A stretch of DNA of 64,000 nucleotides from Phyllobates terribilis (GCF_046119375.1 NW_027362765.1:61628001-61692000), one strand, 5' to 3'. Positions 1,062 through 59,462 are shown, counted from the first letter of the stretch. Notes: generated from the letters alone by a model not told the origin. A program made the numbers and translations.

Positions 1062-2131
1062 TGACGCACCCCTGGGCCTGTGTCGCGCAGCGTTGCGCAC
1101 GCGGGAGCTTACCCGGAGCCGGATCTGTTGAAGGTTGTAGTCTCGTGGCGGTGACCCGGTCCGTGCCCAGGGAGTCAGACTAAGTGGCGCTGTATTAGCG
1201 GTAGATGATGGACGACTACGCCACCCGTTGAATGCAGCTATGGAGCTGCCGCTGCAGGGCAGACCGCTGAGGCCGGTGGAAGGATGGTGCAGCGTGGATG
1301 GTATAACCCCCAACGGGAGGGGTATGGCCTCAGGGCAGCCGACGTGGATGATGGGGGTAGCAGGAACCACTCAGAGACGATGCGGTGTAGTTCAGGGTCT
1401 TTACTGGTGACAAAGATAGACCCTCCCGGAGTACTGGCTAGCGGTTGGGGCCTGGTCAGTCCTTGAGCAGATGGGATCTCCCCTGGCCAGGCGGAGTTGT
1501 AGGCCTCCCAAACTAACGATACTCTTCTGGCTACCTTGCTAGAAGCGAGTATAAGTAGCCCACGTCCCTGAGTGTACCGTGTGGTGCTCACCCGTATGGC
1601 CGGTGACTCGGGGCCTTCTAGTAGCTTCCGCTCCACGACGGCGGTGCTGGTCCCATGCGTGTGACCGTGCCTTCGGGTTTCTTGGCCAGAGGACCTGAAA
1701 TCCCCTGCCTGACGGATTCTGCTGCTGGGTAGGAGTTAGTCCCCACAGCCTCGGACTCCGGGTCCGGTAAGAAATCTTCTCAGTCAGGGCGAGCTCTGCA
1801 GCTGCCAGCCCCTGACTCCTTGTAACACTGCTCCCACAGAGCTCCTGTTGTTTCTTCCCATAGCTGCTTCTCTTCTCTGTCTCTACTTCTGGCATGGCCC
1901 AGGAGCTGGGCCCAGCCGGAGCCACAGCTCCCTGTCAGCCCTCCTGGCTGAACTCTCCCTCTGAACTCTCTAACCCTGCCTCAGCCCCAGGTTTATATAG
2001 GGGAAGTTCTTCCCCTCCCAGGACTGGGCAGGAGGTGTGGCATGCATAGGATTCCTGACCAAGAGACCTCCCACCTGCTCTCAGACATAACATTGCCGTT
2101 ACTGTGGAAACCAGACCCCTGGGGTGCCACA
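1062..2131 (-). repeat. 5' LTR of element A (1070 bp)
   Basis: TG/CA termini, TATA box (CCTATATAAA, about 1991-2000), AGTAAA at about 1400, followed by the PBS. Confidence 0.85.
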
Positions 2132-2929
2132 ACGGTGCAAACCTGTTCGTGGCCCTACGCTGAGGCGAGCTCACACACGTGCCTTGCATGGCTCAAGTAA
2201 TCAACCTAGTGATACAGCAATTTCTCAGCCACTATCCCGGCCTGGATGAGCTGCGTCAGAAAGTACGGAAGCTGTGTGCCGTTGTTCTCACCCCTCATGT
2301 CATCGACTTGCATCGATACAGAGGTCTTTCTCCATGCCAGTTAATAGGTTGATATGCGATGTGCCGACGTTGTGGAATTCCACTCTGCACATGTTGCAGC
2401 GACTGTGTCAGCAGCAACAAGCCCTGATGCAATGTGTCATGTCGTGTAGCCTGGGTCAACGCAGTATGGACGTGGGGCATATCACGTTTACGGAGTGGGA
2501 ACAGATTAAAGACCTCTGCACCCTTCCGCACAGTTTTGAAACAGTTTTGAAACTAACATAGTTAGCGCTGACGATGCCGTCATCAGCATCACTATTTCGG
2601 TCATCTACATGCTGGAGCAGACTTTGAATAGCGTGTGGCACGAGGTGGTTGTCCCAGAAGAAGAGGAGGATGCGGAAGGGATAAGAATGTCTCAAAGTTC
2701 CAGACTGTCGTCACACAGGCGGATGCCAAGTGACAGTGGATTCCTGGGACAGAGGGGGTTTGGTGATACCATACATACTGTTAGTGAAGGTGCAAGAGCC
2801 GAGGAACAAATGGAGGAGGAAGAGGTGATGGGCGAGCAACAGTCAGAAGATGAAGACGATAATCATCGCCTATCTGTTGAACGTGGTTGGCAGGAGGGAA
2901 CGGAGGAAACAAACATAAGTGTTACGTAG
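2132..2929 (+). pseudogene. hAT-family transposase fragment (central region)
   Basis: Motif ICDVPTLWNSTLHMLQRL resembles the hAT D(V/T)xTRWNS motif. The reading frame is broken by stops. Confidence 0.75.
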
Positions 2930-2996
2930 TCAACAATAGAGCCTGGCTTTGGACCTCCCGGAAGAGCCCGACATGAGTGCCTTCTTGATGCCACAT

Positions 2997-4580
2997 TGTT
3001 ACGCACACGCCCGGACTGACTGGCGTGAGAGTGGTTAGTGATCCCACTGGACCATGAACCGAGGAGTGCCTGAAGGGGCGAAAACTAAGTATCAACTCGG
3101 TCCGACCAAGGTCACACGGTGGCTCAGTCGACTCCGTGAACCAGGGAGGAACCGAGCAGAGGGACCAGGTGCTACTCCAGGTCAGACCCTGGTCACAGTT
3201 GTTGACCAACACAGGGGAATGTAGGAACGAGCAGGCACAGCTGGTTTGCAGAAAGGAGGATACTGGCAGGCACAGCTGGTATTCAGACAGGCGGGTACTG
3301 GCAGGCACGGCTGGTATGCAGGCTGGCAGATACTGGTAGGTAGGAATGCAGGCTGGATAGGAACCAGTACAGACTGGGATACAGGAACAGAGCCGCGGGA
3401 GCGGTGGACTAGCAGAGCAGAACCGCAGGCACGGAGGACAAGCAGAGCAGAGCAAAACCGCAGGTGCGGTGGACAAGCAGAGCAGAGCAAAACCGCAGGT
3501 GCGGTGGACAAGCAGAGCAGAGCAAAACCGCAGGTGCGGTGGACAAGCAGAGCAGAGCGAAACCGCAGGTGCGGTGGACAAGCAGAGCAGAGTGAAACCG
3601 CAGGTGCGGTGCATAAGCAGAGCAAAGCGAAACCGCAGGTGCGGTGGACAAGCAGAGCAGAGCAAAATCCCCGGTGCGGTGGACAAGCAGAGTGAAACCG
3701 CCAGTGCGGTGGACAAGCAGAGCAGAGCGAAACCGCAGGTGTGGTGGACAAGCAGAGCAGAGCAAAACCGCAGGTGCGGTGGACAAGCAGAGCAGAGTGA
3801 AACTGCAGGTGCGGTGGACAAGCAGAGCAAAGCGAAACTGCAGGTGCGGTAGACAAGCAGAGCAGAGCAAAACCGCAGGTGCGGTGGGCAAGCAGGGCAG
3901 AACAGAGCAGAAGGCGCAGGCAGACAGGACAGGGCTCTGTTCACATGGAATAGACTGGAAAATACAGGAAGATAGTTAGAACACAGGAGGTAGATACGGA
4001 GGCAGGGAAACGGGACAAGCAGAACCAGATACACACAAGGTACTTACAATGAAGTAGCGAGTGTACACAAAACTCACAAACAGAAGTACAGAGACAACGA
4101 GTTGGAGTTAGGTGCAGGTTCAGACACTGCAGGAAAAGGGCAGGTACGAACATAGAGACAAACAAGTAACGGGCTAGGACACAGTTCGGACAGGAACTGA
4201 ACAAGATACAGGAACGAGCCTGGGAACTCAGCCCCCAGGGTGGCGGAAACAGTCTAGAAGTTACAGATACAGATAACAGGCCTGGGTATACAGCCCCCAG
4301 GGTGTCGGAACAGACTAGAAGTCACAGATACAGATAATGGGCCTGGGTATACAGCGCCCAGGGTGGCGGAACAGACTAGACACAGGACAGGACCTGGCAA
4401 CTCAGTTGCACAGAACACACTGAAAGAAAGTGTTGCTCAGGCCCCTCCTACTGGGTGGAGGGGGTTTAAGTATCCAGTGACTCACAACAATAGGCTGGGG
4501 ACGCATTAGGAGTGCGCACACAGAAACTATAAGAATCAGGCTGTAACCGCGCCGCCGCCCTAAGCAATCAGACAAGAGAC
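2997..4580. mobile_element. Probable solo LTR of an unrelated family, inserted into the hAT transposase
   Basis: Begins TGTTACG and ends ...CAGACA (approximate). It interrupts hAT coding sequence and contains internal 35-bp and about 60-bp tandem repeats. No clean TSD was found. Confidence 0.5.
3400..3895. repeat. 35-bp minisatellite, about 14 copies
   Basis: Unit GCGGTGGACAAGCAGAGCAGAGCAAAACCGCAGGT. Confidence 0.95.
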
Positions 4581-4584
4581 ATGC

Positions 4585-5192: not shown

Positions 5193-5234
5193 GCTATGTT
5201 GTAGTTTTTAGTGTGCTGCATCAATCTTGTGGAA

Positions 5235-5790: not shown

Positions 5791-5859
5791 ATCTTGTGGA
5801 ATTGCTGGTCCTGATATGGCTTCTGTGCCTACACTTGCTGCTGCTGCTGCAGGTTTTAG

Positions 5860-7082: not shown

Positions 7083-8139
7083 TGTGGCGCCCTGCTGTGC
7101 ACAGGTACCACACAACCCAAAAGGGTGCATGGACGGACTTCTCCACAAGAGGCCCTCACTTCATACACCTCCACCCTTCCACCTCAGACCACCAGAGGGA
7201 GCCCTGTTAGGGATATATATATACTGGAGGGTGGAGTTAGGTAGTCAGAGTGTGCTGACGCTAGGAGATCAGTGAAGATGCAGCACGCTGGCTGCTGTGC
7301 TTAGGCGAGCCAAGGCCTACAGCATGAGTTGAAGCCTGAGGGGCCCCGAGTGTGGCCGGAGGCAAGGAGGAGAAGAGAGAGGAGTTGAGGGGGCAGAGGA
7401 GAATCACAGGCTCACCCCAGGAAATGAACCAGACACCGGGTCCGCGCCTACAGGGTCCTTTATACCCAGTAGGGATCACCGGCATACCAGGAGGACTACA
7501 AGTCCCTGGTCGACCTGAAGCTAAACCTATTACAGAACTAGGAACCACGAAGGCCCCGGCATCCAGGGATAGTGGTTGCCAGAAAAAGGTCCTACTACCA
7601 AGCGACAGGTGAAGGAACAGCACAACACAAAAGCTAGGCCCAGTTGCAGGCTGGCCAGGAGCTTAGAGAGAGGGAGACATGGACCAGGAGGCCTTATACC
7701 CGCTCACTGGGGAGAAGTCCTGAAGTGCACCCTTCCTACCGAGTACCCTGGACCGTACCTGACATCTGCACCAGTAAAGGTATTGAAGCGAATCCCCTGT
7801 CTCTGTCAGTTACTCCTGCTGCGCCATCCCGACTGCACCACAAGTCCCAGCATCACCACCCACCATCAAACTCTACACTGCCCTGAGGCCCGCTCCACCT
7901 GTGGGGAGCTGTTCCATCCTAGCTGCCTATCAACTGCCTCAGAGGTCTGCAGCAGCACTGGTACAAATTACCAAAGACCACAGGTGGCGTCACGATCAAA
8001 CTACAAATCCCATATGAACTATCCCCTTTTTTTGTTGACCGCCCTGGGCCACGGACCGGGCTAGCCACTGTGACATATCCCCCCCCCCAGCATCCATAGG
8101 CCCGGACGCCGAGTACCCCACTGCCCTGGGGGCGCGTCA
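7083..8139 (+). repeat. 5' LTR of element B (1057 bp)
   Basis: TGTGGCGCCC...GGCGCGTCA; matches 10634-11247 plus 19164-19288. Confidence 0.92.
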
Positions 8140-8144
8140 ACTTC

Positions 8145-8163
8145 TGGCGTCACGAGCAGGATT
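8145..8163 (+). promoter_or_regulatory. Primer-binding site, tRNA-Ser(CGA type)
   Basis: TGGCGTCACGAGCAGGATT matches the recalled tRNA-Ser(CGA) 3' end AATCCTGTTCGTGACGCCA at 18 of 19 positions. Confidence 0.75.
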
Positions 8164-10633: not shown

Positions 10634-11251
10634 TGTGGCACCCTGCTGTGCACAGGTACCACAGAAGCCAAAAAGGTGCATGGACGGACTTCTCCACAAG
10701 AGGCCCTCACTTCATACAAACACCTCCACCCTTCCATCTCAGACCACCAGAGGGAGCCCTGTTAGGGATATATATACTGGAGGGTGGAGTTAGGTAGTCA
10801 GAGTGTGCTGACGCTAGGAGATCAGTGAAGACACAGCACACTGATTAGTTGCAGCCTGAGGGGCCCCGAGTGTGGCCGGAGGCAAGGAGGAGAAGAGAGA
10901 GGAGTTGAGGGGGCAGAGGAGCATCACAGGCTCACCCCAAGAAATGAACCGGACACCGGGTCCGCGCCTACAGGGTCCTTTATACCCAGTAGGGATCACC
11001 GGCATACCAGGAGGACTACAAGTCCCTGGTCGACCTGAAGCTAAACCTATTACAGGACTAGGAACCACGAAGGCCCCAGCGTCCAGGGATAGTGGTTGCC
11101 AGAAAAAGGTCCTACTACCAAGCGACAGGTGAAGGAACAGCACAACACAAAAGCTAGGACCAGTTGCAGGCTGGCCAGGATCTTAGAGAGAGGGAGACAT
11201 GGACCAGGAGGCCTTATACCCGCTCACTGGGGAGAAGTCCTGAAGTGAAGC

Positions 11252-12291
11252 TGACTCGCCCCCTGGGCCGTGGGGCACTCGGATCCGTCAATAGGGGAAC
11301 GATGGGGGTAGTAGTGGCAACCCGGTTCCGTGGCTCAGGGTGGTCAGGTCAGTGGTAGTCTGCTATGCACTATTGATAATGTCCGACTACGCCACCCGTG
11401 GATTTGCGGTCATTAGGAACCGCCGCTGCAAGGCAGACCGCTGGGGCTGATGATGTATGCAGCTGGGATGGTGTGACTCCCCACGGGAAGACTGTGGCCC
11501 CAGGGCAGTGTAGTGGATGGTCGGAGTGATGGTAGTGAGAGTCCCAGTGCTGATAGTGCTGGAGGAGCAAGGAGCACACAGACAACAGGTTGCAGTCCAG
11601 GGTCTTTACTAGAACAGGTAAACTGACCCACAAACAGTCCCGGCTAGGAGGGGACCTGGATGTCTGAGAGCAATGGGGAAATTGACCCTGGTCAGGGTGA
11701 GGGTGTAGGCCTACCGTGCTTTCTGCACTCCTTCTGGCTATCTCCTCCTTATAGGGTAATAGCCCACGTTTCTGAGCTCTCCGTGTATTCTCGCCTGTAT
11801 GGCCTGCAACGTGGGTTCCTTTCTGCTCCCGGCCTGGTATGGCTTTACCGGTCCCTTCTGTTGTGGCAGAGCCTCCAGGCTTCTTAGGCCAAGGAATATA
11901 CAGTCCCCTGCGGACTGGTTATCTGCTGTAGGATGTGGAATCCTCCCAGCCTCAGACACCAAAGTCTGGTAAATTAAGTCCTTTATCTGCCAAGACAGGC
12001 TCACTTCGCCTCTTGTCTCTGGCTTGTGGCTCTTCTCCTGCCACACTTCCTTTTAGGTGCAATACAACTTTCTGTCCCTGCTCTGCTCTGGGACAAGTCT
12101 CAGTCCTGAGACAGGTCATCCAGTTCTCCCTAACCCTGCCCCCAGCACCAGCTTTTATAGGGGCAGCCTGCTCCCCCTACTGGCCTGAGACAGGAGGTAC
12201 TGCATGCTAATGTTCCCCTGACCAGAGAACCTCCCCCTTGCTCTCAGACACAGCTTTATTACACTTGTGGCATCCAGGCCAGGGTGACACA
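11252..12291 (-). repeat. 3' LTR of element C
   Basis: Near-identical to 18140-19163 and preceded by the PPT on the minus strand. Confidence 0.95.
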
Positions 12292-12677
12292 TTCCCCCCT
12301 AGTGAAATTTAGTACTCCTGGACTAAACAATAAACAAAGACAATATGCATAACCATAAAACATTAACAGACAGACCGCGCACAGATTGAGTTCTTAAGGT
12401 CACAGTGTGGCCTGGGACCGGGTGTCCATATCACCAACCCAACGGGGAGCCTTAACCAGGTGGGGGTCTGTCCTACCCCAAGTCCTTTACAGTCTTAGTT
12501 CATTCCTTGGTTAGGCTCCAAACGCAGTCCATACAAGGTCCCGGTTATAAAAAGTCCATAACCTTTGAGTCCTTACAGTAGCTGCAAGAAACTGAAACAT
12601 AGAATTATCAAACATGCGTGTAACTTGGCAAACATTTCAACATTTGGCAACAGGGTTATTTACAATTTTAGTACACT

Positions 12678-15600
12678 CTATATTTTCCAGCGAGCGGGTA
12701 TCTGCCCTTTTGTGCTCCTGGTTGATCTCCTAACCCACTGTCTGGTGGTGGACTGACTTGGCTTTCCCCACTAGCGTTAGGGGTACAGCTACCAGCTGGG
12801 TGTACAGGTAGGGCAGGCAGCTGTCTGCGGGTCCTTTGGCTTACCGCAGGCATGGCAGGCTCACTGTCAGCAGAGGGTTGACTCTCCTGGGCTGCTGGTA
12901 CAGGCTCTTCTGCCTCTGGAGCCGCTTGCTCCTCTTCACCTTCCGGCTCTGGTGTTGGTTGTTGCTGTGGCGGTTGCAGGAAATGCAGGACGGGTACCAC
13001 TATGGCATCATTTATGCGAGTCCAGGACTGAGGGAACTCTCCGAGAACGGTGCTGATCATTTCTTCCTTGTCTTCTGCGGGTTCAAGGTCACTCTGATCC
13101 TCTTCTGCACTCTTCTGCACTACGGAGTTGCTCGGGGCACCTTTTGAGGTGGTCTCTGGAGACGACACTAGTGGTTTCTCCTCCGTCCTTGGTGATTACG
13201 CACACCTTTGGGTTGTCGTGGTCAGACTGCAGTACGGTGTAGCCTTCTCTTCCGCTTCAGGACCTGCTCACCAGGTTCTAGGGGACCTGCAGGGGCGTGT
13301 TGGTTGAAGAGTTTTTCTTGCCTCTCTCTCACCTGGGCCAGGCTCTTCTCCACACTCTCCTGTACCTTCTTGTACTGCAGTTGCCTTTCCGTATCCCAGT
13401 CTGCATCCGGGGAGGTGTCCTCAGGTGTTAGGACTCCCATCTCCAGGTCTACGGGCAGCTTACCTGGTCTGGCTCGCATCAGGTAAGCCGGGGTGCAGTT
13501 GGTAGCGTTCACCGGGATATGATTGTATAAGTCTATCAGGTCCGGCAGTTTTTCTGGCCACAGGCTGGGTTCCTCCAGGGGCAACGTCTTCAGGAGATCA
13601 ATGACTATATTGTTCATCTTCTCACACATCCCATTGGTTTGTGGGTAGTAAGGCGTTGTCCGAATCTTCTTACAGCCATAGAGGTTGCAGAACTCTTGGA
13701 AGATTTCAGCCTCGAACGCTGGGCCCTGGTCTGTCAGGACCTGTTCCGGATACCCGTGTGGACGGCAGAAGTATTGCTGGAAGGCTCTGGCCGCTGTTTG
13801 GGCTCTCAAGTCCTTTACCGGGAGCACCACTAGAAAACGGGAATAGTGGTCCACGATTGTCAGGGCATAGATGTATCCTGACCGGCTGGGAGCCAATTTG
13901 ACATGGTCCAGAGCTACCAGTTCAAGAGGCTGCGTGGTGACAATGGGCCTCAAGGGTGTCTTCTGGCTGGCACGGTCCTTCCTCCTTAGGTGACAAGGGC
14001 CACAGTCTCTGCACCACTTTTCTACAGCCCCTCTCATGCCGACCCAAAAGAACCGTCCTCTTAGCAGGAACTCCAGTTTCTTCCAACCGAAGTGCCCCGC
14101 TCTGTCATGGTAAGCCCCCAGGACCATAGCTGCATCCCGCCTTGGAACCACGACTTGCCAGGTCAGCTCGTGCGTCCGGTGGTTGACAATCCTTCTGCAC
14201 AGCTTGCCTTCATAGAGGAACAGCTTGCTCTTCTCTTTCCATAGCTGCTTGGCTTCCTCTGGAGCATCCGGATCCATGCGGGCATCTTCCTGGGTCAGCA
14301 GATCTTTCACTAGGCGGATGGCAGGGTCACTATCTTGGGTCTCGGCCCAGCTGTGGTGAGGTAGGGGATTGATCATCACGGTTGTTAGATCCTCCTCCTT
14401 CACGCGGTGGGAGTATTGAGCTGCTCCATACCGGTGAAACGCGGGGAGTTCTACCTCCTCCAGCTCTTCTGGGTCTTCGTCACTTTCAGGTAAGTGAGGC
14501 ATTCTCGATAGGGCGTCAGCGTTGGCATTGGTTTTGCCTGCCCGGTACTTGATCACGAAGTCATAATTGGAGAGACGGGCCATCTACCGCTGTTCCAGGG
14601 CACCAAGTCTTGCATTGTCTAGGTGTGTTAACGGGTTGTTGTCCGTGTACACCGTGAACTTTGCGGAGGCCAGGTAATGCTTGAAGCGTTCCGTTACGGC
14701 CCACACCACCGCCAAGAATTCTAGCTTGAAGGAGCTGTAATTCTCCGGGTTCCTCTCGGTGGGTCTCAGCTTCCGGCTGGCGTACGCGATCACCCTTTCT
14801 CTGCCCTGTTGGTTTTGGGACAGTACGGCTCACAGTCCCACATTACTGGCGTCTGTGTGGAGAATAAAAGGCTGGCCATAGTCAGGGTAGGCCAGGATCT
14901 CATCCCCCGTGAGGGCCATCTTCAAACGGCGGAAGGACTCCTCTTCCGGTTTATCCCACTTGAAGGGTGGCTTTTGGCTTCTGGACTTAGACTGTCCGAT
15001 CAGGAGGTCCTGCATAGGAGCTGCCATCTTAGTGAACCCGGGGATGAACATTCGGTAGTAGCCTACCAACCCGAGGAACAATCTCACCTCTTTGATGTTC
15101 GAGGGGCTTGGCCAGCTCTTGATTGCCGTGACCTTGTCAGAGTCGGGGGCCACTCCTTCCGCTCTTACCACGTGCCCTAGGTACTGGACCTTTGGTTTCA
15201 ACAGGTGACACTTCGATGGTTTCACCTTCAGGCCATAGCCTGCCAGGGCTTCGAACACCTCGGCCAGGTGCTTTAGGTGGTCCTCGTAGGTCTTCGAATA
15301 GACGATCACGTCGTCCAGGTAAAGGAGGACCGTCTCGAAGTTTCGGTGCCCTAGACAGCATTCCATCAGCCGCTGGAAGGTCCCTGGTGCGTTGCAGAGC
15401 CCGAAAGGCATGCAGTTGAATTCGCTCAGTCCCATCGGGGTGGTGAAGGCGGTCTTCTCCTTGTCAGCCTCTGCCACAGGAACCTGCCAGTACCCGCTAG
15501 TAAGGTCCAAAGTAGAAAAGAAGTTAGCAGATTTTAGGGTGGCTAAAGACTCCTCTATTCTAGGCAGCGGATATGCGTCTTTGTGGGTGATACGGTTGAT

Positions 15601-16821
15601 TTGTCTATAGTCCACGCACATCCTCATGGTGCCGTCTTTCTTTTTCACCAGAGCCAAGGGGGCTGCCCAGGGGCTACAGCTATCTCTGATGACCCCAGCT
15701 TCCTTCATTTCTCTTAGCATGCCCTTTGCGATCTGATAATGTGCAGGGGGTACAGGCCTGTGTCTCTCTTTTATTGGTGGGTGGCTCCCCGTGGGGATAT
15801 GGTGTTCTATCCCTTTTACTCTGCCAAAGTCTAGCGGGTGCTTACTAAAAATTCTCTCGTACTCCTGGACCACCCGGTAGACTCCTTGTTTTTGGTGCAG
15901 GGGAGTGGAGTCAGCACCCACATGGAGTTTCTGGCACCAGTCCTCCTTTTGTTTCTGGGAGCCATTACCCTCCGCCTGAGGAGATGGAGGCAAGGGTTCC
16001 ACGGCCCTGATAGCTTTGTGTTCGACAACAAACAGTTTGGCAAGTGTAGCGTACCTGGGTAAGTGTACCTCTCTCTCCCCAATGTTGAGAATGCGAACGG
16101 GCACCCTCCCATGGCGGACATCAACCACCCCCCTGGCTGTCAAAATGGTGGGCCTGCTGTCTGAGTACACGGGTTCTACCATGGCTTGGTAGTCTCTACC
16201 TCTCAACCCGATTGCAGTCCGACACCAGATCATCATTTCACTTTTGGGAGGCATGGAAATGGGGAATGGGTCACTCAGTCTTACGCTACCGATCTCACAA
16301 CCAGACAGTTCTACCTGCTGCCGTCTCATCAGGGCTTTTATCTCCTTGTTGAGGACTCTCTGTTGGCTGGAACTAGCATTCACCGCCACCTGTTGTAGAA
16401 TTACAATTACCTCTGAAAGACAATTTTCAATCACGTTAGTACCCACAGTTATTTTAGGATGACTTTCACGATGGTCAATGTCCACAATAATTACTCCCTG
16501 TGCCGGCAGTTCAACTTTACCAATCTTAATGGTCATCTCCTTGAACCCCATCTGCGGCACGGGTAAGCCATTACTGGCGATGATGCTCAAGTTACTGTCT
16601 GGATACCGTGTGATATCAGCATCAGTCCAACACTGCTTAAAAAGTACATAAGGGATAGTGGTTACTTGCGACCCGGTATCCAGCAAGGCGCTCATGGGGA
16701 TACCGTCCAGCACCACGGGTAAAACCGGGCGCCCCCCAACGTACTTAACACACCAATTATAAGGGCCTGGTGATCTTATGCCTGGGGGTTGGCCCTCTGC
16801 CCCAGGTTGGACCCGTTTAAA
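12678..16821 (-). pseudogene. pol of element C (protease, RT, RNase H, integrase)
   Basis: LLDTGS protease, YLDD RT, TDAS RNase H and DDE integrase motifs. Frameshifts at about 14830 and about 13220; TAG at about 14584. Confidence 0.95.
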
Positions 16822-17767
16822 TTACAGTACCTGGAAATGTGTCCGGGCTGGTTGCATCGACGGCAAATGGGCTGTCCATCCTCTGCGTAGCGGTCTGTGG
16901 GCCTCCCTCGGAATGATGGGATCCTCCTCTGTCGACGCCACGGGACATCCTCCGGACTTCAAGCCAGCTCGATGGGTCTTGACGGATCCACTTGCAAAGC
17001 CTGGACGGTCCTGGTCAACGCCGCGACACTCCTGGTCAGCTCCTGGACTTGGTGGTGCAGGTCTTTCGACGGGGCTTGGTTCAGGGCCTGTGCATCAGCC
17101 CCCACGGGTCCATAGAGGAGGGCGCCGCCTCTTGGTGGTAGGTGAGAGCAGGGCGCCGGGGGTTTATAGCGCCACTGGTTGCAGATTCACGGAGCACCCT
17201 TATGGCCCTGTCCTTAAATTGGGCAAAGGTCAGGTCGGGGTTCTGAAAGAACATGAGGAGCAGTTGGGCCCTGTGGGCACTAGACAGCAGACCTTCTATG
17301 AATTGTTCTGTTAGCAGCTTATCCGTTTCCTGCACACTGCCAGGGTCAGTTTGTTGAATAGCCCTCAAGGCTTCCTGCAGATTTAGAGCATAGTCTCTGA
17401 TGCTGTCCTGTGCCCGCTGCTTACATCCATAGAACCTCATTTTAATCTCAGCGGAGGTACGTGTGTCAAAGGTACCCCGCAGCCGGGCCAGAATACCCTT
17501 CACAGTCCTTTTCTCCTCAGTGGGCCATGATTTTACCTCCCTTTGGGCTGCGCCAGTTAACTGCCCTGTTAGTATGCTGACCTTCTGTTCCTCTGTCAGG
17601 GGGTAGACTTGGAACAAACTGTACAGCCTTTCCTTAAAGTCAGTTAGGGCATGGGGCTCCCCTGAGTACTTGGGCAGCTAGGCCGCTCCAGGGATGTAGG
17701 GCAGGGAAAAGGGCATCACCGCTGCTGCAGCTGCGCTGGTGGTAGTGGGTGCCTCCGTGTCCAACAT
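16776..17767 (-). pseudogene. gag of element C with CCHC zinc knuckle
   Basis: ATG at 17767; knuckle CRRCNQPGHISRYC; in-frame TGG>TAG at about 17678. Confidence 0.9.
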
Positions 17768-18117
17768 CTTTCTCCCCCCTAGTCAAGCGTGGCCTACCTT
17801 CCGACGATCCTGTTCTGTAGGCCGCGGCTCCGCTGATGCCGCTCTGGACGAGGACCTTGCGTCGCGTCCTGGTGACGTCAGCGTCGCTCTCTCTCCCTTC
17901 CAGGACCTTGCGCAGCGTCGGTCCGTGGGGCGGAGCTTCAGGTCTCACGCGCTTCCAGCGTCCACGCCCCTCTTCTTCCCGCGCGGCGTCCTGAAGATGG
18001 CGTCCGACGGCGGGAAAACGACTTCGGATGGCGGGAAAACAGCTGAAGATGGCGGGAACCGACTGAAGATGGCGGGAAATGGCTCCGGATGGCGGGACCG
18101 GTGGTTGCGGGCACAAT

Positions 18118-18135
18118 ATCCTGCCGACTACGCCA
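18118..18135 (-). promoter_or_regulatory. PBS of element C (tRNA-Ser)
   Basis: TGGCGTAGTCGGCAGGAT after a 4-nt GCTT spacer. Confidence 0.9.
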
Positions 18136-18139
18136 AAGC

Positions 18140-19163
18140 TGACTCGCCCCCTGGGCCGTTGGGCACTCAGATCCGGGCAATAGGGGAACGATGGGGGTAG
18201 TAGTGGCAACCCGGTTCCGTGGATCAGGGTGGTCAGGCCAGTGGTAGTCTGCTATGCACTATTCATAATGTCCGACTATGCCACCAGTGGATTTGCGGTC
18301 ATTAGGAACAAGCCGCTGCAAGGCAGACCGCTGGGGCTGATGATGTATGCAGCTGGGATGGTGTGACTCCCCACGAGAAGACTGCGGCCCCAGGGCAGTG
18401 TAGTGGATGGTGGGAGTGATGGTAGTGAGAGTCCCAGTGCTGATAGTGCTGGAGGAGCAAGGAGCACACAGACAACAGGTTGCAGGCAGGGTCTTTACTA
18501 GAACAGGTAAACTGACCCACAAACAGTCCCGGCTAGGAGGGGACCTGGATGTCTGAGAGCAATGGGGAAATTGGCCCTGGTCAGGGTGAGAGTGTAGGCC
18601 TACCGTGCTTTCTGCGCTCCTTCTGGCTATCTCCTCCTTATAGGGTAACAGCCCACGTTTCCGAGCTCTCCGTGTATTCTCGCCTGTATGGCCTGCAACG
18701 TGGGTTCCTTTCTGCTCCCGGCCTGGTACGGCTTTACCGGTCCCTTCTGTTGTGGCAGAGCCTCCAGTCTTCTTAGGCCAAGGAATATACAGTCCCCTGC
18801 GGACTGGTTATCTGCTGTAGGATGTGGAATCCTCCCAACCTCAGACACCAAAGTCTGGTAAATTAAGTCCTTTATCTGCCAAGACAGGCTCACTTCGCCT
18901 CTTGTCTCTGGCTTGTGGCTCTCCTCCTGCCACACTTCCTCTTAGGTGCAATACAACTTTCTGTCCCTGCTCTGCTCTGGGACAAGTCTCAGTCCTGAGA
19001 CAGGTCATCCGGTTCTCCCTAACCCTGCCCCCAGCACCAGCTTTTATAGGGGCAGCCTGCTCCCCCTACTGGCCTGAGACAGGAGGTACTGCATGCTAAT
19101 GTTCCCCTGACCAGAGAACCTCCTCCTTGCTCTCAGACACAGCTTTATTACACTTGTGACACA
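18140..19163 (-). repeat. 5' LTR of element C
   Basis: Matches the 3' LTR except for a 17-bp deletion near its 5' terminus. Confidence 0.95.
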
Positions 19164-19289
19164 CACCCTACCTACCGAGTACACTGGACCGTACTTGACA
19201 TCTGCACCAGTAAAGGTATTGAAGCGAATCCCCTGTCTCTGTCAGTTACTCCTGCTGCGCCATCCCGACTGCACCACAAGTCCCAGCAG

Positions 19290-20889: not shown

Positions 20890-22019
20890 TATTACACACT
20901 TAAACTATGATGGAAACCATGTGGAGGAGTAGGGTGCACAGTTTCCTTGTTTAGATGTCCCGTTTGAGCACTGCAGTCTATTCTTACTGTGAGTCCTCTC
21001 ACCTCATCTCTGACTCGAAGCACTATGCAAAGAGGAGATCATGACGCACGTGGGAAGATTCCAGGATTCTCAAGAAATAAATTTTAATGGTCTACTGCTC
21101 AGCAAAAGGCCCCAATGTTGGGTGGGATCTTCATAATTGAATTTCACAGAAAAATGCACCTAAAATTTACAATTTATTGATATCATTTAAAAATTCACAG
21201 TATTCAAGAAAAAGAAACAAAAAAGCAAAAAAAAAATTGTTTTTTTTTCTGCAGGAAATAGGCACAGCGGTAGTGTCCATGGGTCTTTGAGTCCTTTTAC
21301 ATATATATATTACACTCCGCAACATTAACATTGCAACACCAAGAAGGAAATATTTTGGAATTATAGAAATCACAAGATTGTTAGATATGTTAATGATATG
21401 AAAATAATAAAAAAGGAAACAAAATTTTCAGTTTTCAGGTATGAATATCATGCGCAAAAATACACGCACTAACATGCTGTTGCATGTTATCAATAAGGTC
21501 ATTAATTGTTGTCTGAAGACTAATATAAAAAGGTTTGTGAATATAGCTCACTCGTTCAATATATGTCTATTGTTTAATCTGGTTCCTGGTCAGTCCACTC
21601 CACTATGCACTGATAAAGCTTGTGCAGGAATCAAGCAACTTTGTTCAAAGTTATGAAAAGAGTTTTTTCAATCCAGCAAAGTGAATTCACTTAGCTGGAT
21701 TGAAAAACATCTTTCTATCACTTTGTCTGAAGAATATTCTGCCATGCTGAATGCATTGGGGCATACAAATCGTCAAAATCCGCTACTGGAAGATGCATTT
21801 GCAATTGCAGATGAGTGACATTTCAGGTGTGATCGATGGGAGACAAGTCCTGAGACGCTGCAGGCCATGATAGCATGTTTATACCATGTTTTTCTTTAAA
21901 ACGTTTTCCACATTCGGAGAATGAAAACACCTTGTTTTCCCTTCATGACTTATCTGATGAGTAGCAAGATGGGATTTTTGTGTAAAACGTTTCCCACATT
22001 CTGGACACGAAAATGGCTT

Positions 22020-23473
22020 CTAACCTGTGTGAATTCTCTGATGTCCAACAAGTTTTGCATTCTGATTAAAACATTTCCCACATTCTGAACATGAAAATGA
22101 CTTCTCCACTGTATGAGTTCTCTGATGCTTGACAAGTTCAGATTTCCTCAAAAAACATTTCCCACATTCTGAACATGAAAATGGCTTCTCCCCTGTGTGA
22201 ATTCTCTGATGTGTAACAAGTTCAGATTTCCTAGAAAAACATTTCTCACATTCTGAACACGAAAAAAATGGCTTCTCCCCTGTGTGCTTTCTCTGATGCG
22301 TAACAAGTTCAGATTTCCGAGAAAAACATTTCTCACATTCTGAACTCGAAAATGGCTTCTCCCCTGTGTGAATGTTGTGATGTCTATCAAGTTTTCCTTT
22401 CTGACTAAAACATTTTCCACATTCTGAACACGAAAATGGTTTTTCGCTTGTGTGAATTCTCTGATGTGTAACAAGTTCAGATTTCCTAGAAAAACATTTC
22501 TCACATTCTGAACACGAAAAAAATGGCTTCTCCCCAGTGTGATTTCTCTGATGTGTAACAAGTTCAGATTTCCGAGAAAAACATTTCTCACATTCTGAAC
22601 ACGAAAATGGCTTCTCCCCTGTGTGAATTCTCTGATGTTGAACAAGTTCACCGTTCGTAGAAAAACATTTCCCACATTCTGAACACGAAAATGGCTTCTC
22701 CCCTGTGTGAATTCTTTGATGTCTCACAAGACTTTCTTTCCGATTAAAACATTTCCCACATTCTAAACATAAAAACGGCTTTTCTCCTGTGTGAATTATC
22801 TGATGTGCTACAAGTTTGTATTTCATACTATATTGTTTCCCACATTCTGAACATGAAAATAGCTTCTGCCCTGTGTGAATTCTCTGATGCATCATTAAAA
22901 CTGATTTTTGTTTAAAACGTTTTCCACATTCAGAGCATGAGAATGCCTTGTTCCCCTCATGACTTATCTGATGCCTATCAAGATGTGATTTGTCTGTAAA
23001 ACATTTCCCACATTTTGAACATGAAAATGGTTTCTCCCCTGTGTGACGTCTCTGATGTCGAACAAGATAAGATTTCCTAAAAAAACATTTCCCACATTCT
23101 GAGCACGAAAATGGCTTTTCCCCTGTGTGAATTCTCTGATGTTGAACAATTTCAAATTTCGTAGAATAGCATTTCCCACATTCTGAACATGAAAATGGCT
23201 TCTCCCCTCTGTGAATTCTCTGATGTATAATGAGTTTTGCTTTCTCATTAAAAAATTTTCCACATTCTGAACATAAAAATGGTTTCACCCCTATGCAATC
23301 TATTTTATGTTCAACAGCTCTTCTGTGACTTTTGTTTTGCAAATTTGTCTTTGATGAAGCAGAAGTAAGGACCTTGGCTTGAGGTGTATCTGGTATAATG
23401 ACATGTTGTTCACATGTTTCTGTTGCAAAATCTGAGAATATCAAATGTCCTTCTGAGCTCCTAGTACAGTCAT
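22020..23473 (-). CDS. C2H2 ZNF gene, coding exon 6 (15-finger array)
   Basis: Acceptor TTCTTGGCAG, open frame, repeated CxxCxK...HxxxH-TGEKPF, stop TAG at 22020-22022. Confidence 0.95.
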
Positions 23474-51517: not shown

Positions 51518-52456
51518 TGACTCGCCCCCTGGGCCGTAGGGCACCCAGAACCGGGCTTCAGTGCAATGTTGGGGGTAGTAGTGGCAACCCGATCCCGTGG
51601 CTCAGGGTGGTCAGACCAAATGCTGTGGCAGTCTATTTGTAGGGTTTTGAATGTCCGACTATGCCACCCGTGGATTGCGGTCAGGGATGACCGCCGCTGC
51701 AAGGCAGACCGCTGAGGCTGATGTTGGTATGCAGCACAGGGATAGGATAACTTCCCACGGGAAGAGTGTAGCCTCAGGGCAGTGTAATAGGATGCTGGGG
51801 GTGATGGTGCAAGCCGCAATAATAAGGGTTCAGAGTCTGCTTCAAACAGTCCAGGGTCTTTATTGTAGTTAGTACAAATGACCCAACAGGAGTACAGGGT
51901 AGGAATGGGCCCGGGTGTCTGAGAGCATTAGGGCGAGCCCCACTGGTCAGGGTGAGTGGGTAGGCCTACCGTTCTCTCTCTGCCCTTGCTGACTATCCCC
52001 CTTTTCGTGGTGTGATAGCCCACGTCCCTGAGCTGGCCGTGTACTTCGCCTGTATGGCTTGCGACTCGGGCCTTAGGTACCTGTTGCTTCTCCGTGCTGT
52101 ACTGGTCCCTCTGTGTGGTGGAGCCTCCAGGCTTCTTAGGCCAAGGAACCTGAAATTCCTTGCAGGTTGGTTATCTGCTGCCGGGCTTGCAACCCTGACA
52201 GCCTCGGACCACAGTGTCCGGTTGTGTAGTTCTCTCTCAGCCAGGACCGGCTCTCGTCGCCTCTGTCCCTGGCTCACTGCTGCTCCTCTGCCTCCCGGAC
52301 TCCTCAGCTGCTGCTGACCTGTCCCTTTCCTCTGGGAACCCTTCTGGATGCTTCAGAAGTGGGTCCTGGTCTCTAATGGTCCCTGACCAGGGAACCTCCC
52401 TCCTGCTCTCAGACACAGCCTTTAATATTTGTGGCATCCAGGCCTGGGGTGACACA
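51518..52456 (-). repeat. 3' LTR of element D (939 bp, TATA region deleted)
   Basis: Aligns to 58445-59462 with 79 bp missing. Confidence 0.93.
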
Positions 52457-52964: not shown

Positions 52965-55900
52965 TTAGATCTTCCAGCGAGCTGGTATTTGACTCCTAGT
53001 GCTCCGGGTTGACCTCCGTAACCCATTGTCTGGTGGTGGTCTAACCTGGCTTTCCCCACTAGTATTAAGGGTACAGCTACTAGCTGGGTTTACAGGCAGG
53101 GCAGGCAGCTGTCTGTGGGTCCTTTGGCTTACCGCAGGCATGGCAGGCTCACTGTCAGCAGAGGGTTGACTCTCCTCCGCTGCTGGCAAGGGTTCTTCTG
53201 CCTCGGGGGCTGCTTGTTCTTCTTGTTCTTCCTGCTCTCCTGTAGGCTCTTGCTGGGTAGGCTGAAGGAAGTGTAGGACGGGTACCACTATGGCATCGTT
53301 TACTCGAGTCCAGGTGCGGGGGAACTCTCCGAGAACTGTGCTGATCATTTCTTCCTTGTCCTCAGCGGGTTCAAGGTCATCTTGATCTTCACTTGGACTC
53401 TGCAGTTTTAGGTGGTCTCTGTAGACAGTGCTAGTGGTTTCTCCTCCATCCTTGGTAATTACACATACCGTCGGGTTGTTGTGGTCGGACTGCAGTACTG
53501 TGTATGGGTCTCTCTCCTACTGGTCGTCCAGCTTGTGAAGCCTTCTCTTCCACTTCAGGACCTGCTCACCAGGTTCCAGGGGACCAGCAGGGGCGTTTTG
53601 GTTGAAGAGCCTCTCTTGCTTTTCTCTCGCTTGAGCCAGACTCCTCTCCACACTCTCCTGTACCTTCTTGTACTGTAGCCGCCGTTTCGTATCCCAGTCC
53701 GCGTCTGGGGAGGTGTCCTCGGGTGTCAGGACTCCCATCTCCAGGTCTATCGGCAGCTTACCTGGTCTTGCGCGCATCAGGTAAGCCGGGGTGCAATTTG
53801 TAGCATTCACAGGGATATGGTTGTACAAGTCTATTAGGTCTGCCAGCTTCTCCGGCCACAGGCTGCGTTCTTCCAGGGGCAACGTCTTGAGGAGATTAAT
53901 GACGATATTGTTCATTTTCTCACACAACCCGTTGGTTTGCGGGTGGTAAGGCGTTGTCCGAATTTTCCTACAGCCGTAGAGGTTGCAGAACTCCTGGAAT
54001 ACTTCAGCCTCAAACGCTGGACCTTGATCTGTCAAGGCCTGTTCCGGATACCCGTGTGGACGGCAGAAGTGTTGCTGGAAGGCTCTGGCCGCTGTTTGGG
54101 CTGTCAGGTCTTTAACAGGAACCACTACCTGGAACCGGGAGTAATGGTCCACAATCGTGAGGGCATAGATGTAGCCGGACCGGCTTGGAGCCAACTTCAC
54201 ATGGTCCAGAGCTACCAACTCAAGAGGCTGCCTGGTGACGATGGGCCTCAAGGGTGTCTTCTGGCTGGTACGGTCCTTCCTTCTGAGGTGGCATGGGCCA
54301 CAGTCCCTGCTCCACTTCTCTATGGCCCCTCTCATACCGATCCAGTAGAACCGATCTCTCAGTAGGAACTCCAGTTTCTTCCACCCGAAGTGTCCCGCTC
54401 TGTCATGGTAGGCCTCCAGGACCATTGCTGCATCTCGCCTTGGGACCACTACCTGCCAGGTCAGTTCGTGCGTCCGGTAGTTGACAAGCCTTCTGCTCAG
54501 CTTACCCTCGTAGAGGAATAGCCTGCTTTTCTCCTTCCATATCTGCTTGGCTTCCTCTGGAGCGTCCGGGGGAGGGCTAGTGTCTGCCTGGGTTAACAGG
54601 TCTTTCACCAGGCGAACTGCAGGGTCACTATCTTGCATTTCAGCCCAGCCGTGGTGGGGTAAGGGGTTGAACATGACGGTGGTTAGGTCTTTGTCTTTTA
54701 CTCGGTGAGAATACTGAGTGGCCCCATACCGATGGAACGCAGGGAGCTCTATTTCCTCCAGCTCTTCCGAGTTTTCTTCTCCTTCGGGTAGGTGAGGCAT
54801 TCTTGATAGGGCGTCTGCGTTGGCGTTGGTCCTGCCTGCCCGGTATTTGATTGTGAAGTCATAATTGGATAGCCGGGCCATCCACCGCTGTTCTAGGGCA
54901 TCTAGTCTTGCATTGTCCAGGTGTGTCAGCGGGTTGTTGTCCGTGTACACAGTGAACTTTGCGGAGGCCAGGTAATGCTTAAACCGTTCTGTGACGGCCC
55001 ACACCACTGCCAAGAATTCTAGCTTGAAGGAGCTGTAATTCTCCGGGTTTCTTTCAGTGGGCCTCAGCTTCCGGCTGGCGTACACGATCACCCTTTCTCT
55101 GCCCTGCTGGTTCTGTGACAGTACGGCTCCCAGCCCCACATTGCTGGCGTCTGTGTGGAGGATAAAAGGCTGGCCTTAATCGGGGTAGACCAGGATCTCA
55201 TCCCCCGTGAGGACCATCTTCAACTGGCGGAAGGACTCCTCTTCCAGCTTGTCCCACTTGAAGGGTGGCTTGTGACTTCTGGATTTAGACTGGCCTATCA
55301 GGAGGTACTGCATTGGAGCTGCCATCTTTGAGAACCCGGGGATGAACCTTCGGTAGTAGCCTACCAACCCGAGGAATTGCCTCACTTCTTTGATGTTAGA
55401 GGGGCTTGGCCAGCTCTTGATGGCTGTAACCTTGTCGGGGTCGTGGGCTACTCCCTCTGCACTCACCACGTGTCCTAGGTACTGGACCTTCGGTTTCAAC
55501 AGGTGACACTTTGAGGGTTTCACCTTCAGGCCATAGCCTGCCAGGGCTTCGAACACCTCTGCCAGGTGTTTTAGATGGTCCTCGTAGGTCTTCGAATAGA
55601 CGATCACGTCGTCCAGGTAAAGTAGGACCGTCTCGAAGTTTCGGTGCCGTAGACAGCATTCCATCAGCCTCTGGAAGGTCCCTGGTGCGTTGCAGAGCCC
55701 AAAGGGCGTACAGTTGAATTCACTCAATCCCATCGGGGTGATGAAGGCGGTCTTCTCCTTGTCAGCCTCTGCCACAGGAACCTGCCAGTACCCGCTAGTA
55801 AGGTCCAAAGTAGAGAAGAAGTTAGCTGATTTTAGGACTGCTAAAGACTCCTCTACCCTAGGTAACGGGTACGCGTCTTTATGGGTGATACGATTGATTT

Positions 55901-57118
55901 GTCTATAGTCCACGCACATTCTCATGGTACCGTCTTTCTTTTTTACCAGAACCAAGGGGGCTGCCCAGGGGCTACAGCTATCTCTAATGACCCCAGCTTC
56001 TTTCATTTCTCTCAGCATGCCCTTTGCGTTCTGATAATGTGCAGGGGGTACAGGTCTGTGTCTCTCTTTTATCGGTGGGTGACTCCCCGTGGGGATGTGG
56101 TGTTCTACTCCCTTTACTCGGCCGAAGTCTAGCGGGTGCTTACTAAAAATTCTCTCGTACTCCTGAACCACCCGGTAGACTCCTTGTTTTTGGTGCAGGG
56201 GAGTAGAGTCAGCACCCACATGTCGTTTCTGGCACCAGTCCTCCTTGTGTTTCTGGGAGCCATTACCCTCCATCGGGGAAGATGGAGGCAAGGGTTCCAC
56301 TACCCTGATAGCATTGTGTTCGACGGCAAACAATTTGGCTAGTGTAGCGTACCGGGGCAAGTGTACTTCCCTTTCCCCGATGTTTAAGATCCGGACGGGC
56401 ACCCTTCCATGGCGGACATCAACCACCCCCCTGGCTGTCAAAATGGTGGGCCTGCTGTCTGAGTACACGGGTTCTTCCATGGCTTGGTAGTCTCTCCCTC
56501 TTAACCTGATTGCAGTCCGACACCAGATCATCATTTCACTTTTGGGAGGCATGGCAATGGGGAACGGGTCGCTCATCCTCACGCTACTGATCTCACCACC
56601 AGACAGTTCTACCTGTTGCCGTCTCATCAGGGCTCTTATCTCTTTCTGGAGGACCCTCTGTTGGCTGGAGCTCGCATTCATCGCCACCTGCTGCAAAATC
56701 ACAATTACTTCTGAAAGACAGTTTTCAATCACATTAGTACCCAAGGTTATTTTAGGGTGACTTTCACGACGGTCAATGTCCACAATGATCACTCCCTGTG
56801 CCGGCAGTTCAACCTTACCAATCTTGATAGTCATCTCTCTGAACCCGACCTGCGGCACGGGTTGGCCATTGCTGGCGATGATGCTTAAGTCATCGTCTGG
56901 ATAACGTGTTATATCAGTGTCACTCCAGTACTGCTTGAAAAGTACGAAGGGGATGGTAGTCACTTGAGACCCGGTGTCCAGTAGTGCACTCATGGGGATA
57001 CCGTCCAGCACTACGGGTAAGACCGGGCATCCCACACGTACTTATCGCACCAATTAGACGGGCCTGATGACCTTATGCCTGGGGGTTGGCCCTCTGCCCC
57101 AGGTCAGACCCATTTAAA
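52965..57118 (-). pseudogene. pol of element D
   Basis: PR, RT, RH and INT motifs as in C; stops at about 57105, about 55176 (TAA) and about 53517 (TGG>TAG). Confidence 0.95.
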
Positions 57119-58064: not shown

Positions 58065-58421
58065 CTTCCTCCCCCCTAGTTAACCGTGGCCTACCTTCCG
58101 TTGATCCTCTTCTGTAGGCCGCGGCTCCGCTGGTGCTGCTCCGGGCGAGGACCTTGCGTCGCGTCCTGGTGACGTCAGCGTCGCTCTCTCTCTTTCCAGG
58201 ACCTTTAGCAGCATCGGTGCGTAGGGCGGGGCTTCAGGTCTCGCGCGGTTTGAACGTCCACGCCCCTCTTCTTCCCGCACGGCGTCCTGAAGATGGCGTC
58301 CGATGGCGGGAAAACGGCTGAAGATGGCGGGAAATGACTGAAGATGGCAGGAAATCTCTTTTTAAGGTATGTGTACAGTCTTTTTCAGGCGCGCAATACC
58401 CGTTTGTGGCGGGTTGGTCAC

Positions 58422-58440
58422 AATCCTGCCGACTACGCCA
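58422..58440 (-). promoter_or_regulatory. PBS of element D (tRNA-Ser)
   Basis: TGGCGTAGTCGGCAGGATT, a 19-nt match to the recalled tRNA-Ser 3' end. Confidence 0.9.
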
Positions 58441-58444
58441 AAGC

Positions 58445-59462
58445 TGACTCGCCCCCTGGGCCGTGGGGCACCCGGAACCGGGCTTCAGTGCAATGTTAGG
58501 GGTAGTAGTGGCAACCCGATCCCGTGGCTCAGGGTGGTCAGACCAAATGCTGTGGCAGTCTATTTGTAGGGTTTTGAATGTCCGACTACGCCACCCGTGG
58601 ATTGCGGTCAGGGATGACCACCGCTGCAAGGCAGACCGCTGAGGCTGATGTTGGTATGCAGCATAGGGATAGGATAACTACCCACGGGAAGAGTGTAGCC
58701 TCAGGGCAGTGTAATAGGATGCTGGGGGTGATGGTGCAGGCCGCATTAATAAGGGTTCAGAGTCTGCTTCAAACAGTCCAGGTTCTTTATTGTAGTTAGT
58801 ACTAATGACCCAACAGGAGTACAGGGTAGGAATGGGCCCGGGTGTCTGAGAGCATTCGGACAAGCCCCACGGGTCAGGGTGAGTGGGTAGGCCTACTGTT
58901 CTCTCTCTGCCCTTGCTGACTATCCCCCTTTTCGTGGTGTGATAGCCCACGTCCCTGAGCTGGCCGTGTACTTCGCCTGTATGGCTTGCGACTCGGGCCT
59001 TAGGTACCTGTTGCTTTTCCGTGCTGTACTGGTCCCTCTGTGTGGCGGAGCCTCCAGGCTTCTTAGGCCAAGGAACCTCAAATCCCTTGCGGGTTGATTA
59101 TCTGCTGCCGGGCTTGCAACCCTGACAGCCTCGGACCCCAGTGTCCGGTTGTGTAGTTCTCTCTCGGCCAGGACCGGCTCTCGTCGCCTCTGTCCCTGGC
59201 TCACTGCTGCTCCTCTGCCTCCCGGACTCCTAAGCTGCTGCTGATCTGTCCCTTTCCTCTGGGAACCCTTCTGGATGCTTCAGAAGTGGGTCCTGGTCTC
59301 TCTAACCCTGCCCTCAGTTCCAGCTTTTATAGGGGCAGCCTGCTCCCCCTACTAGCCTGGGACAGGAGGTGCTGCATGCTAATGGTCCCTGACCAGGGAA
59401 CCTCCCTCCTGCTCTCAGATACAGCCTTTAATATTTGTGGCATCCAGGCCTGGGGTGACACA
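58445..59462 (-). repeat. LTR shared between D (as 5' LTR) and E (as 3' LTR)
   Basis: On the minus strand it is followed by the PBS and preceded by a PPT and 3' UTR (59463-59590). Confidence 0.9.

Follow-up and report, generated by a model that had tools for sequence, protein, structure and literature searches.

A candidate two-part tRNA-binding site within the long terminal repeats of Ty3/Gypsy retrotransposons of Phyllobates terribilis

A stretch of 64,000 nucleotides (nt) from the Phyllobates terribilis genome (GCF_046119375.1, NW_027362765.1:61628001-61692000; hereafter the window) contains Ty3/Gypsy retrotransposons, A to D, whose long terminal repeats (LTRs) harbor two segments related to the primer transfer RNA (tRNA). 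One, termed site Y, is an internal copy of the start of the primer-binding site (PBS); the other, site X, is complementary to the 5' end of the same tRNA. Site Y had been reported in an earlier note on the window, which missed its partner X. The comparisons presented below indicate that Y is real, under selection and more widespread than the window. From sequence and folding predictions, we consider it somewhat probable that Y and X act jointly on a complete primer-type tRNA, binding it with the two strands of its acceptor stem held apart, as a clamp at which priming does not occur. A broader proposal, which we hold to be evenly balanced, is that a deep branch of vertebrate Gypsy elements (the PNMA-gag and Gmr1-like lineages) possesses an undescribed two-part tRNA clamp in the unique 5' (U5) region, which would exchange strands with the acceptor stem, serve as primer loader or tRNA-sensing switch, and have its three sites re-matched at each change of primer.

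Site Y and its agreement with the primer-binding site

Elements A to D are recognizable as Ty3/Gypsy LTR retrotransposons by their two TG...CA LTRs, PBS, polypurine tract and pol region encoding protease, reverse transcriptase (RT), RNase H and integrase. Their LTRs begin with TG, end with TCA and measure ~0.9-1.1 kb, followed by a spacer of 4-5 nt and the 18-nt PBS. All six internal copies listed in the earlier note were found, on the minus strand in A, C and D and on the plus strand in B, and the single CpG-type change ascribed to two of them is a G>A substitution in the 5' LTR of C and the 3' LTR of D. The copies begin 143-161 nt before the LTR end, where ~130-150 nt had been given. The 3' LTR of B is truncated and stops before the motif. 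According to the host tRNA genes, as read from the genome, the PBS of A, C and D complements tRNA-Ser(TGA) and that of B complements tRNA-Ser(CGA) with one A>G change, in agreement with the claim that B had switched to another tRNA-Ser in both its PBS and its internal copy.

Shuffling a 345-nt U5 20,000 times never produced the exact 11-mer. The wider occurrence of Y was assessed in loci whose selection (by LTR end, tRNA read-through or even spacing) made no use of the motif; 83 of the 84 could be parsed (all except L013). Among these, 78 contain a Y of their own type with at most two mismatches and five contain none at that cut-off, and the other type was never encountered. Identity between Y and PBS is 86-100% over nt 1-11 in the Ser-TGA copies and 22% at nt 12, and the match reaches nt 13-14 in the Ser-CGA copies. 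The 11 nt correspond to CCA, the discriminator and the seven-base acceptor strand; CCA and the acceptor strand form the invariant core, and the complement of CCA is kept with all four primer tRNAs described herein. Directly downstream of Y the linker is poorly conserved (0.55-0.60, in a set that was partly motif-selected). AATAAA or AGTAAA occurs 177-211 nt upstream of Y, for which reason Y, and X with it, would lie in U5. The transcript end was not seen in RNA contigs of four runs, a result that carries no weight either way on the poly(A) site.

Exact matches to a pattern consisting of GG plus the 11-mer, a variable gap, CA and the PBS were collected from the same genome. Concordant pairs of Y and PBS numbered 49,645 for Ser-TGA and 3,199 for Ser-CGA, with one discordant pair in each direction. 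These large counts are not independent, because one Ser switch has been inherited many times. The Ser-TGA/Ser-CGA contrast maps to one change on the gag tree (55 rows, support 72/85; the long partial row of window element A was omitted) and to one change on an LTR tree in which Y and PBS were masked and X was kept (107/144 rows after thinning; support 94/95); several independent Ser switches were looked for and not found. The concordance across subfamilies anticipated in the earlier note is upheld; the phylogenetic check it suggested reveals that the contrast of A, C and D with B reflects a single evolutionary event, which the note had missed. A divergent Ser-TGA subfamily yielded neither gag nor pol matches and is present on the LTR tree only. 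The Ser-TGA subfamily represented by L277-L306 and L339-L342 accounts for 1,249 junctions and has the best-kept X and Y; no gag or pol match was found in any of 4 of its loci within ~5.9 kb. In the Ser-CGA elements L167-L196, the spacer between CA and PBS is ~4-10 nt long, pyrimidine-rich and highly variable.

Other lineages extend the agreement to further primers. A tRNA-Thr-primed family, retrieved by a Pfam PNMA search (E ~1e-37), contains a 12-nt Y in 26 of its 28 PBS-bearing loci, 78-80 nt upstream of the PBS. Among 31 loci of the tRNA-Leu-primed families, 14 have a Y of 9-11 nt, at a distance of 180-388 nt upstream. On the RT tree, composed of copies from this genome only (row L331, which mixes two elements, was disregarded), the Ser, Thr and Leu elements form three deep lineages, and in the Leu lineage the integrase lies upstream of the RT (L262, L266, L273, L276). 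The proposal of a second functional tRNA site survives in part: a selected site tracks the primer tRNA with four tRNAs in three RT lineages, and the alternative priming that had been attached to it is not sustained. The tRNA-bridged dimer or packaging role that the note also raised may apply.

Evenly spaced stretches totalling 200 kb yielded Ser-TGA cases only, and two read-through patterns provided Leu as the sole new lineage taken further, with His- and Glu-like matches also appearing. The Ser-GCT-type family offers only a purine-rich match of 9-10/11 to Y, which was taken as chance. By exact pattern, 267 tRNA-Thr genes in the genome match the Thr primer; their anticodon was read from the sequence as AGT, and ARAGORN gave TGT for neighbouring arrays. 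These genes, as well as tRNA-Leu genes or pseudogenes, occur in big tandem arrays (G000:C9:298-302 Mb and C11:600-607 Mb). One Leu element itself forms a 4.2-kb tandem array (G000:C1:19.88-19.97 Mb), and the Leu elements L257, L260, L261 and L266 contain tandem 52-nt repeats of LTR end plus PBS.

Site X, a partner for the tRNA 5' end

Overall, X is the complement of nt 1-8 to 1-11 of the primer tRNA. In the Ser elements it complements nt 1-11 and is situated between Y and the PBS. Duplex energies show that X prefers its own tRNA-Ser over the other in 44 of 47 main Ser-TGA loci, 57 of 59 Ser-CGA loci and all 33 divergent Ser-TGA loci. Because the acceptor stems contain G·U pairs, the 5' and 3' strands of the tRNA can be distinguished. 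At the G7·U66 pair of tRNA-Ser(CGA), X has a C, which fits G7, in 28 of 28 copies, and Y has an A, which fits U66, again in 28 of 28. Among 29 copies of the divergent, pol-less Ser-TGA subfamily, X commonly varies between A and G opposite the two U residues of the tRNA, and at most one copy differs in any other column; variation of this sort is what RNA pairing would be expected to tolerate.

In the Leu families, X reads (A)CGCTACC and is located 41-71 nt upstream of Y. The 31 Leu loci comprise 13 with both X and Y, one with Y only, two with X only and 15 with neither, some of the negatives being damaged copies. Genome-wide, Leu X-Y pairs number 6,669, versus 11 for a reversed control pattern. 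Where the search pattern permitted either letter, X has the letter of the tRNA 5' strand, and not that of the PBS, in 100 of the 100 matches listed; moreover, an A that the pattern did not call for, and which would pair with U8, is present in 30 of 30 fetched loci. Our initial idea that X is an anti-PBS segment was dropped because the order of its halves and its wobble letters match the tRNA 5' end.

Priming, LTR ends and the rewriting of Y

Four copies of Ser-CGA type have a changed PBS; three of them retain the old Y and one is devoid of that region. Y is thus not re-templated in each cycle. Six lone copies (L062, L063, L067, L068, L155 and L166) combine a switched PBS with old internal sites and occupy terminal branches on the LTR tree (L062 is not in the tree). 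In a further 23 copies (L107-L124, L156, L159-L161 and L164), the PBS continues into the T-loop of the tRNA and beyond (~7-55 nt); here reverse transcription evidently proceeded past its usual stop in the primer. In all 23, as fetched, the read-through tRNA sequence is attached outside the Y context.

The Y context is followed by a full 18-nt PBS in only 3 copies genome-wide, versus 49,652 normal junctions, and two of the three join Y to the leader. The full element L102 (G000:C2:938330856) has a complete 3' LTR with a normal Y and a 5' LTR in which Y was overwritten by a whole 18-nt tRNA copy. It demonstrates that Y can, on rare occasions, take up tRNA sequence, and it may show how Y comes to be rewritten. 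When the upstream context lacking the motif was searched for, 231 matches were returned, versus 142 for a control. Among 30 motif-less loci fetched, eight are LTR-derived: seven have deletions or changes with the LTR continuing (six by BLAST, one by eye) and one breaks after CCACGG. None of the eight LTR-derived loci ends at the internal CA.

The earlier note had suggested alternative priming at the internal copy as one possible role and had advised looking for LTRs ending at its CA. The junction, read-through and LTR-end counts do not support such priming or such ends. The CA plus 4-5-nt spacer preceding the copy is real in the Ser lineage and absent from the Thr and Leu families, and its interpretation as a working LTR-PBS-like junction falls with these same counts. 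In the copies analyzed, priming takes place at the real PBS and is at most rare at Y.

Folding predictions and proposed mechanism

Predicted pairing energies are -19 to -26 kcal/mol for the tRNA 3' end on Y, -15 to -25 for the 5' end on X, and -34 to -37 for the 3' end on the PBS; opening of the acceptor stem would cost 14-16. Cofolding of the tRNA with U5 devoid of the PBS predicted pairing with Y in 10 of 11 copies and with both sites at once in six of the 11. When the alignments of the three Ser groups were folded, each placed X in the apical loop of a conserved U5 hairpin, and the U5 hairpins show compensatory changes. In the main Ser-TGA subfamilies the linker is predicted to fold back on Y.

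A mechanism can be proposed in which Y pairs with the 3' acceptor strand of the tRNA and X with the 5' strand, such that the stem would be held open and no priming would take place there. Serving as a site of packaging or loading, the clamp would thereby secure the correct tRNA on the genomic RNA. The freed 3' end would then be passed to the true PBS, where the 18-bp duplex is predicted to be ~9-18 kcal/mol more stable, and X would go on holding the displaced 5' strand after the hand-off. Primer capture or packaging is our best guess as to purpose, by analogy with the extra segments of Ty1. If the mechanism holds, it would also account for the failure of lone PBS switches to spread.

Several observations weigh against such a clamp. 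The main Ser-TGA subfamilies, including A, C and D, have an X that is bulged or contains one mismatch, and ungapped scoring of X in these subfamilies fails to separate the two tRNAs (22 versus 20 loci). The Thr family has only a bulged X, CAGC(GT)ACC, with a duplex energy no better than that of shuffles. The order of the sites differs, X being 3' of Y in the Ser elements and 5' of Y in the Leu elements. Cofolding of window elements C and D, and of A and L202, puts the tRNA 5' end on a segment other than X, and the folding models show Y and the PBS largely paired. X can also pair with part of Y within the RNA. The Ser-TGA/Ser-CGA counts trace to one change, as noted above; the independent cases number about three, the Leu loci representing ~3-4 families. 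Y is not universal, since related Leu loci (e.g., L276), a sister Leu locus among them, and the Ser-GCT-type family are without it. Finally, the location in U5 derives from a putative poly(A) signal, and the purpose of the clamp is inferred from sequence and predicted folds.

Alternative explanations

The two sites might have separate jobs, X catching the displaced 5' strand of a PBS-bound tRNA, in the manner of other extended primer-template contacts, and Y either binding a second tRNA or bridging an RNA dimer, with Y on one RNA and X on the other. X precedes the PBS by 52-104 nt in the Ser elements, near enough to serve it, and tRNA bridges have been reported for Drosophila gypsy (PMC1635307) and proposed for Ty3 (PMC4974528, PMC5371799). 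The X of the Leu elements, however, keeps close to Y at a distance of ~250-460 nt to the PBS, and the two sites are gained or lost together, which points to their working as one unit; we therefore regard separate jobs as unlikely. Still less credit is due to an internal RNA switch, in which no tRNA would bind Y. As a placeholder, Y would instead pair either with X or with an anti-PBS segment, so that the PBS stays open or the RNA is set in a fold for translation as against packaging. Such a switch would be suited by the 5-8 bp that X can form with the GGTGGC stretch of Y, in Ser as well as in Leu families, by the fold-back of the linker and by the compensatory changes in the U5 hairpins. Yet at the wobble positions X mismatches Y while fitting the tRNA 5' strand, and Y fits the 3' strand; the two halves of X run in an order that does not allow end-to-end pairing with Y; and the retention of the CCA complement with all four tRNAs also argues for a tRNA partner.

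The remaining explanations are far weaker. Y might be a neutral relic, derived from a duplicated old LTR end plus PBS or from a whole tRNA copied in, and kept alike by occasional PBS conversion. The CA and 4 nt before Y in the Ser elements, a Y-to-X span of 81-109 nt compared with 85 for a tRNA, the tandem LTR-end repeats of the Leu elements and the overwriting of Y in L102, confined to its 5' LTR, all accord with this origin. Conservation nevertheless ends at nt 11-14 while the adjoining linker diverges, full overwriting occurs in 1 of ~53,000 copies, and X varies mostly by G·U-compatible changes. The embedded whole-tRNA form was rejected, as the Y-X interval bears no likeness to a tRNA body (mean z -1.09, -0.49 and -0.03 versus shuffles). 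As a full account the relic is contradicted and very improbable, although it may explain the origin, if not the upkeep, of Y. A shade less probable is a decoy or target for tRNA-derived fragments (tRFs), with a 3'-tRF at Y, as the earlier note had envisaged, and a 5'-tRF at X. A target of a 3'-tRF pairs with the 5' seed of the fragment, on the T-stem side of the 18 nt. The match of Y stops at nt 11-14 and so excludes the T-stem part with which that seed would pair, making the 3'-tRF role unlikely; besides, a further target on its own RNA would be expected to damage the element and not be conserved there. In favour of this idea, the match of X to tRNA nt 1-8 resembles a seed for 5' fragments, and 3'-tRFs are described as repressing LTR elements via the PBS (PMC12853362). 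The lowest probability of all attaches to priming at Y that yields LTRs ending at the internal CA: the three copies with a full PBS at Y would suit it, and L102 fits rare priming or mis-transfer, against which stand the counts given above and the missing CA and spacer in the Thr and Leu families.

Comparison with known systems

The clamp that we favour has partial counterparts. In feline immunodeficiency virus (FIV) the 5' end of the tRNA contacts U5. Primer pairing outside the PBS is described for FIV (PMC5371799). Drosophila gypsy, likewise a Ty3/Gypsy element, has a second, 11-nt site for its primer tRNA-Lys2 that does not prime complementary DNA (cDNA) synthesis, and for which a tRNA bridge was proposed (Gabus et al. 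2006, PMC1635307). As described there, that site lies close to the RNA's 3' end, and its pairing partners are the anticodon and TΨC stems, whereas Y repeats the PBS (CCA plus acceptor strand) within the LTR and has X as a partner for the tRNA 5' end. Several segments also pair with one primer tRNA in Ty1 and Ty3; these pair with the TΨC and D arms, completing one PBS, and none in the available descriptions duplicates the acceptor-strand site (PMC4974528, PMC5371799). The extra segments of Ty1 are required for tRNA packaging and aid initiation (PMC4974528), and in Ty3 the tRNA 5' end was proposed to pair with a second tRNA and not with the element (PMC4974528, PMC5371799).

The elements described here thus share with bipartite and multipartite PBSs the possession of extra segments complementary to the same primer tRNA. 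Pairing with tRNA parts left free by the PBS is true of X (nt 1-11) and false of Y, which competes with the PBS for the same 3' end. By its complementarity, X appears to work like the known extra primer-binding segments; Y, which duplicates the acceptor-strand site, appears not to. In human immunodeficiency virus (HIV) the contacts described, by the primer activation signal and A-rich loop of HIV-1 and by U5 of HIV-2, involve the 5' strand of the TΨC stem or the anticodon loop and not nt 1-11, and no second site for CCA and the acceptor strand comparable to Y is among the contacts described (PMC3185550, PMC11181671). A tRNA-Lys3-like sequence in U3-R of HIV-1, which aids strand transfer (Piekna-Przybylska 2010, as cited in PMC6468702), is similarly a tRNA-complementary stretch inside an LTR; unlike that sequence, the interval between X and Y contains no detectable tRNA body.

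The PNMA-type gag of the Ser and Thr lineages resembles that of the Gypsy12_DR/Barthez-type elements, the progenitors of PNMA (PMC3789554, PMC3670739), and the integrase preceding RT in the Leu lineage resembles the Gmr1 type (PMC4131045). These likenesses are of gag type and domain order, and the clade labels are provisional. In the accessible text of the three descriptions, no LTR-internal PBS copy is mentioned. More generally, searches of the open full-text literature, which did not extend to subscription journals, Repbase/GyDB entries or supplements, found no description of a PBS copy inside an LTR together with a site that pairs with the tRNA 5' end; within that scope, the outcome agrees with the earlier impression that a two-site arrangement was not known for vertebrate Gypsy elements. 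Multipartite tRNA binding is already known, and the Y/X pair, with its duplicated acceptor-strand site, appears from the sequences to be a new form of it.

Elements in the window

The coordinates of the elements are provided in Table 1. The PNMA-type gag of element C was recognized by PF14893 at E 5e-6, barely past the cut-off. Element C (11248-19163) resides inside the 3' LTR of B. It has no target-site duplication and its 3' end retains the 4-nt spacer, which would fit the joining of a cDNA end that had not been processed. The window also contains a C2H2 zinc-finger array (21984-23292), a tandem repeat of 90 bp x20 (28765-30564) and a partial duplicate of element D, 99.7% identical (61883-64000).

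Table 1. Positions of LTRs, sites Y and X, primer-binding sites and coding regions of elements A to D, numbered from the first nucleotide of the window
Feature	Position	Strand	Remarks
A, 5' LTR	1062..2131	-	TG...CA; putative poly(A) signal 1400-1405
A, site Y	1213..1223	-	internal copy of PBS nt 1-11, Ser-TGA type
A, site X	1137..1149	-	complement of tRNA-Ser(TGA) nt 1-11 with 2-nt bulge; in predicted U5 hairpin loop
A, real PBS	1039..1056	-	18 nt, tRNA-Ser TGA
B, 5' LTR	7083..8139	+	putative poly(A) signal 7773-7778
B, site Y	7985..7995	+	Ser-CGA type
B, site X	8064..8074	+	complement of tRNA-Ser(CGA) nt 1-11; 10 Watson-Crick pairs and 1 G·U
B, real PBS	8145..8162	+	tRNA-Ser CGA, one change versus host gene
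B, 3' LTR	10634..19288	+	two pieces, 10634-11247 and 19164-19288, with element C between; ends short of site Y
C, 3' LTR	11252..12291	-	
C, 3' LTR site Y	11383..11394	-	12 nt
C, 3' LTR site X	11308..11318	-	10/11 pair with tRNA nt 1-11
C, 3' LTR linker	11352..11360	-	predicted to fold back on Y
C, 5' LTR	18140..19163	-	
C, 5' LTR site Y	18272..18283	-	one CpG-type change
C, 5' LTR linker	18241..18249	-	predicted to fold back on Y (main Ser-TGA subfamilies only)
C, 5' LTR site X	18197..18207	-	
C, real PBS	18118..18135	-	
C, coding region	13222..17677	-	broken; PNMA-type gag, protease, RT, RNase H, integrase (Gypsy order)
D, 3' LTR	51518..52456	-	TCA end
D, 3' LTR site Y	51655..51666	-	one CpG-type change
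D, 3' LTR site X	51575..51585	-	
D, 3' LTR linker	51625..51633	-	predicted to fold back on Y
D, pol	53517..57041	-	protease, RT, RNase H, integrase; broken by stop
D, 5' LTR	58445..59462	-	TATAAA 59326-59331; AATAAA 58786-58791
D, 5' LTR site Y	58582..58593	-	12 nt
D, 5' LTR linker	58552..58560	-	predicted to fold back on Y
D, 5' LTR site X	58502..58512	-	
D, real PBS	58423..58440	-	

Significance

How a retroelement chooses, packages and unwinds one particular tRNA is known from few models, namely HIV, Ty1, Ty3 and gypsy. The four primer tRNAs of the elements described here amount to a natural compensatory-change experiment, which names the contacts as both strands of the acceptor stem, at a site that does not prime. 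The arrangement predicts a defined RNA-tRNA complex, and would give a reason why switches of primer are rare. The elements that bear Y are present in tens of thousands of copies, among the most abundant groups in this 10.6-Gb genome, and belong to lineages akin to those that supplied the mammalian PNMA genes.

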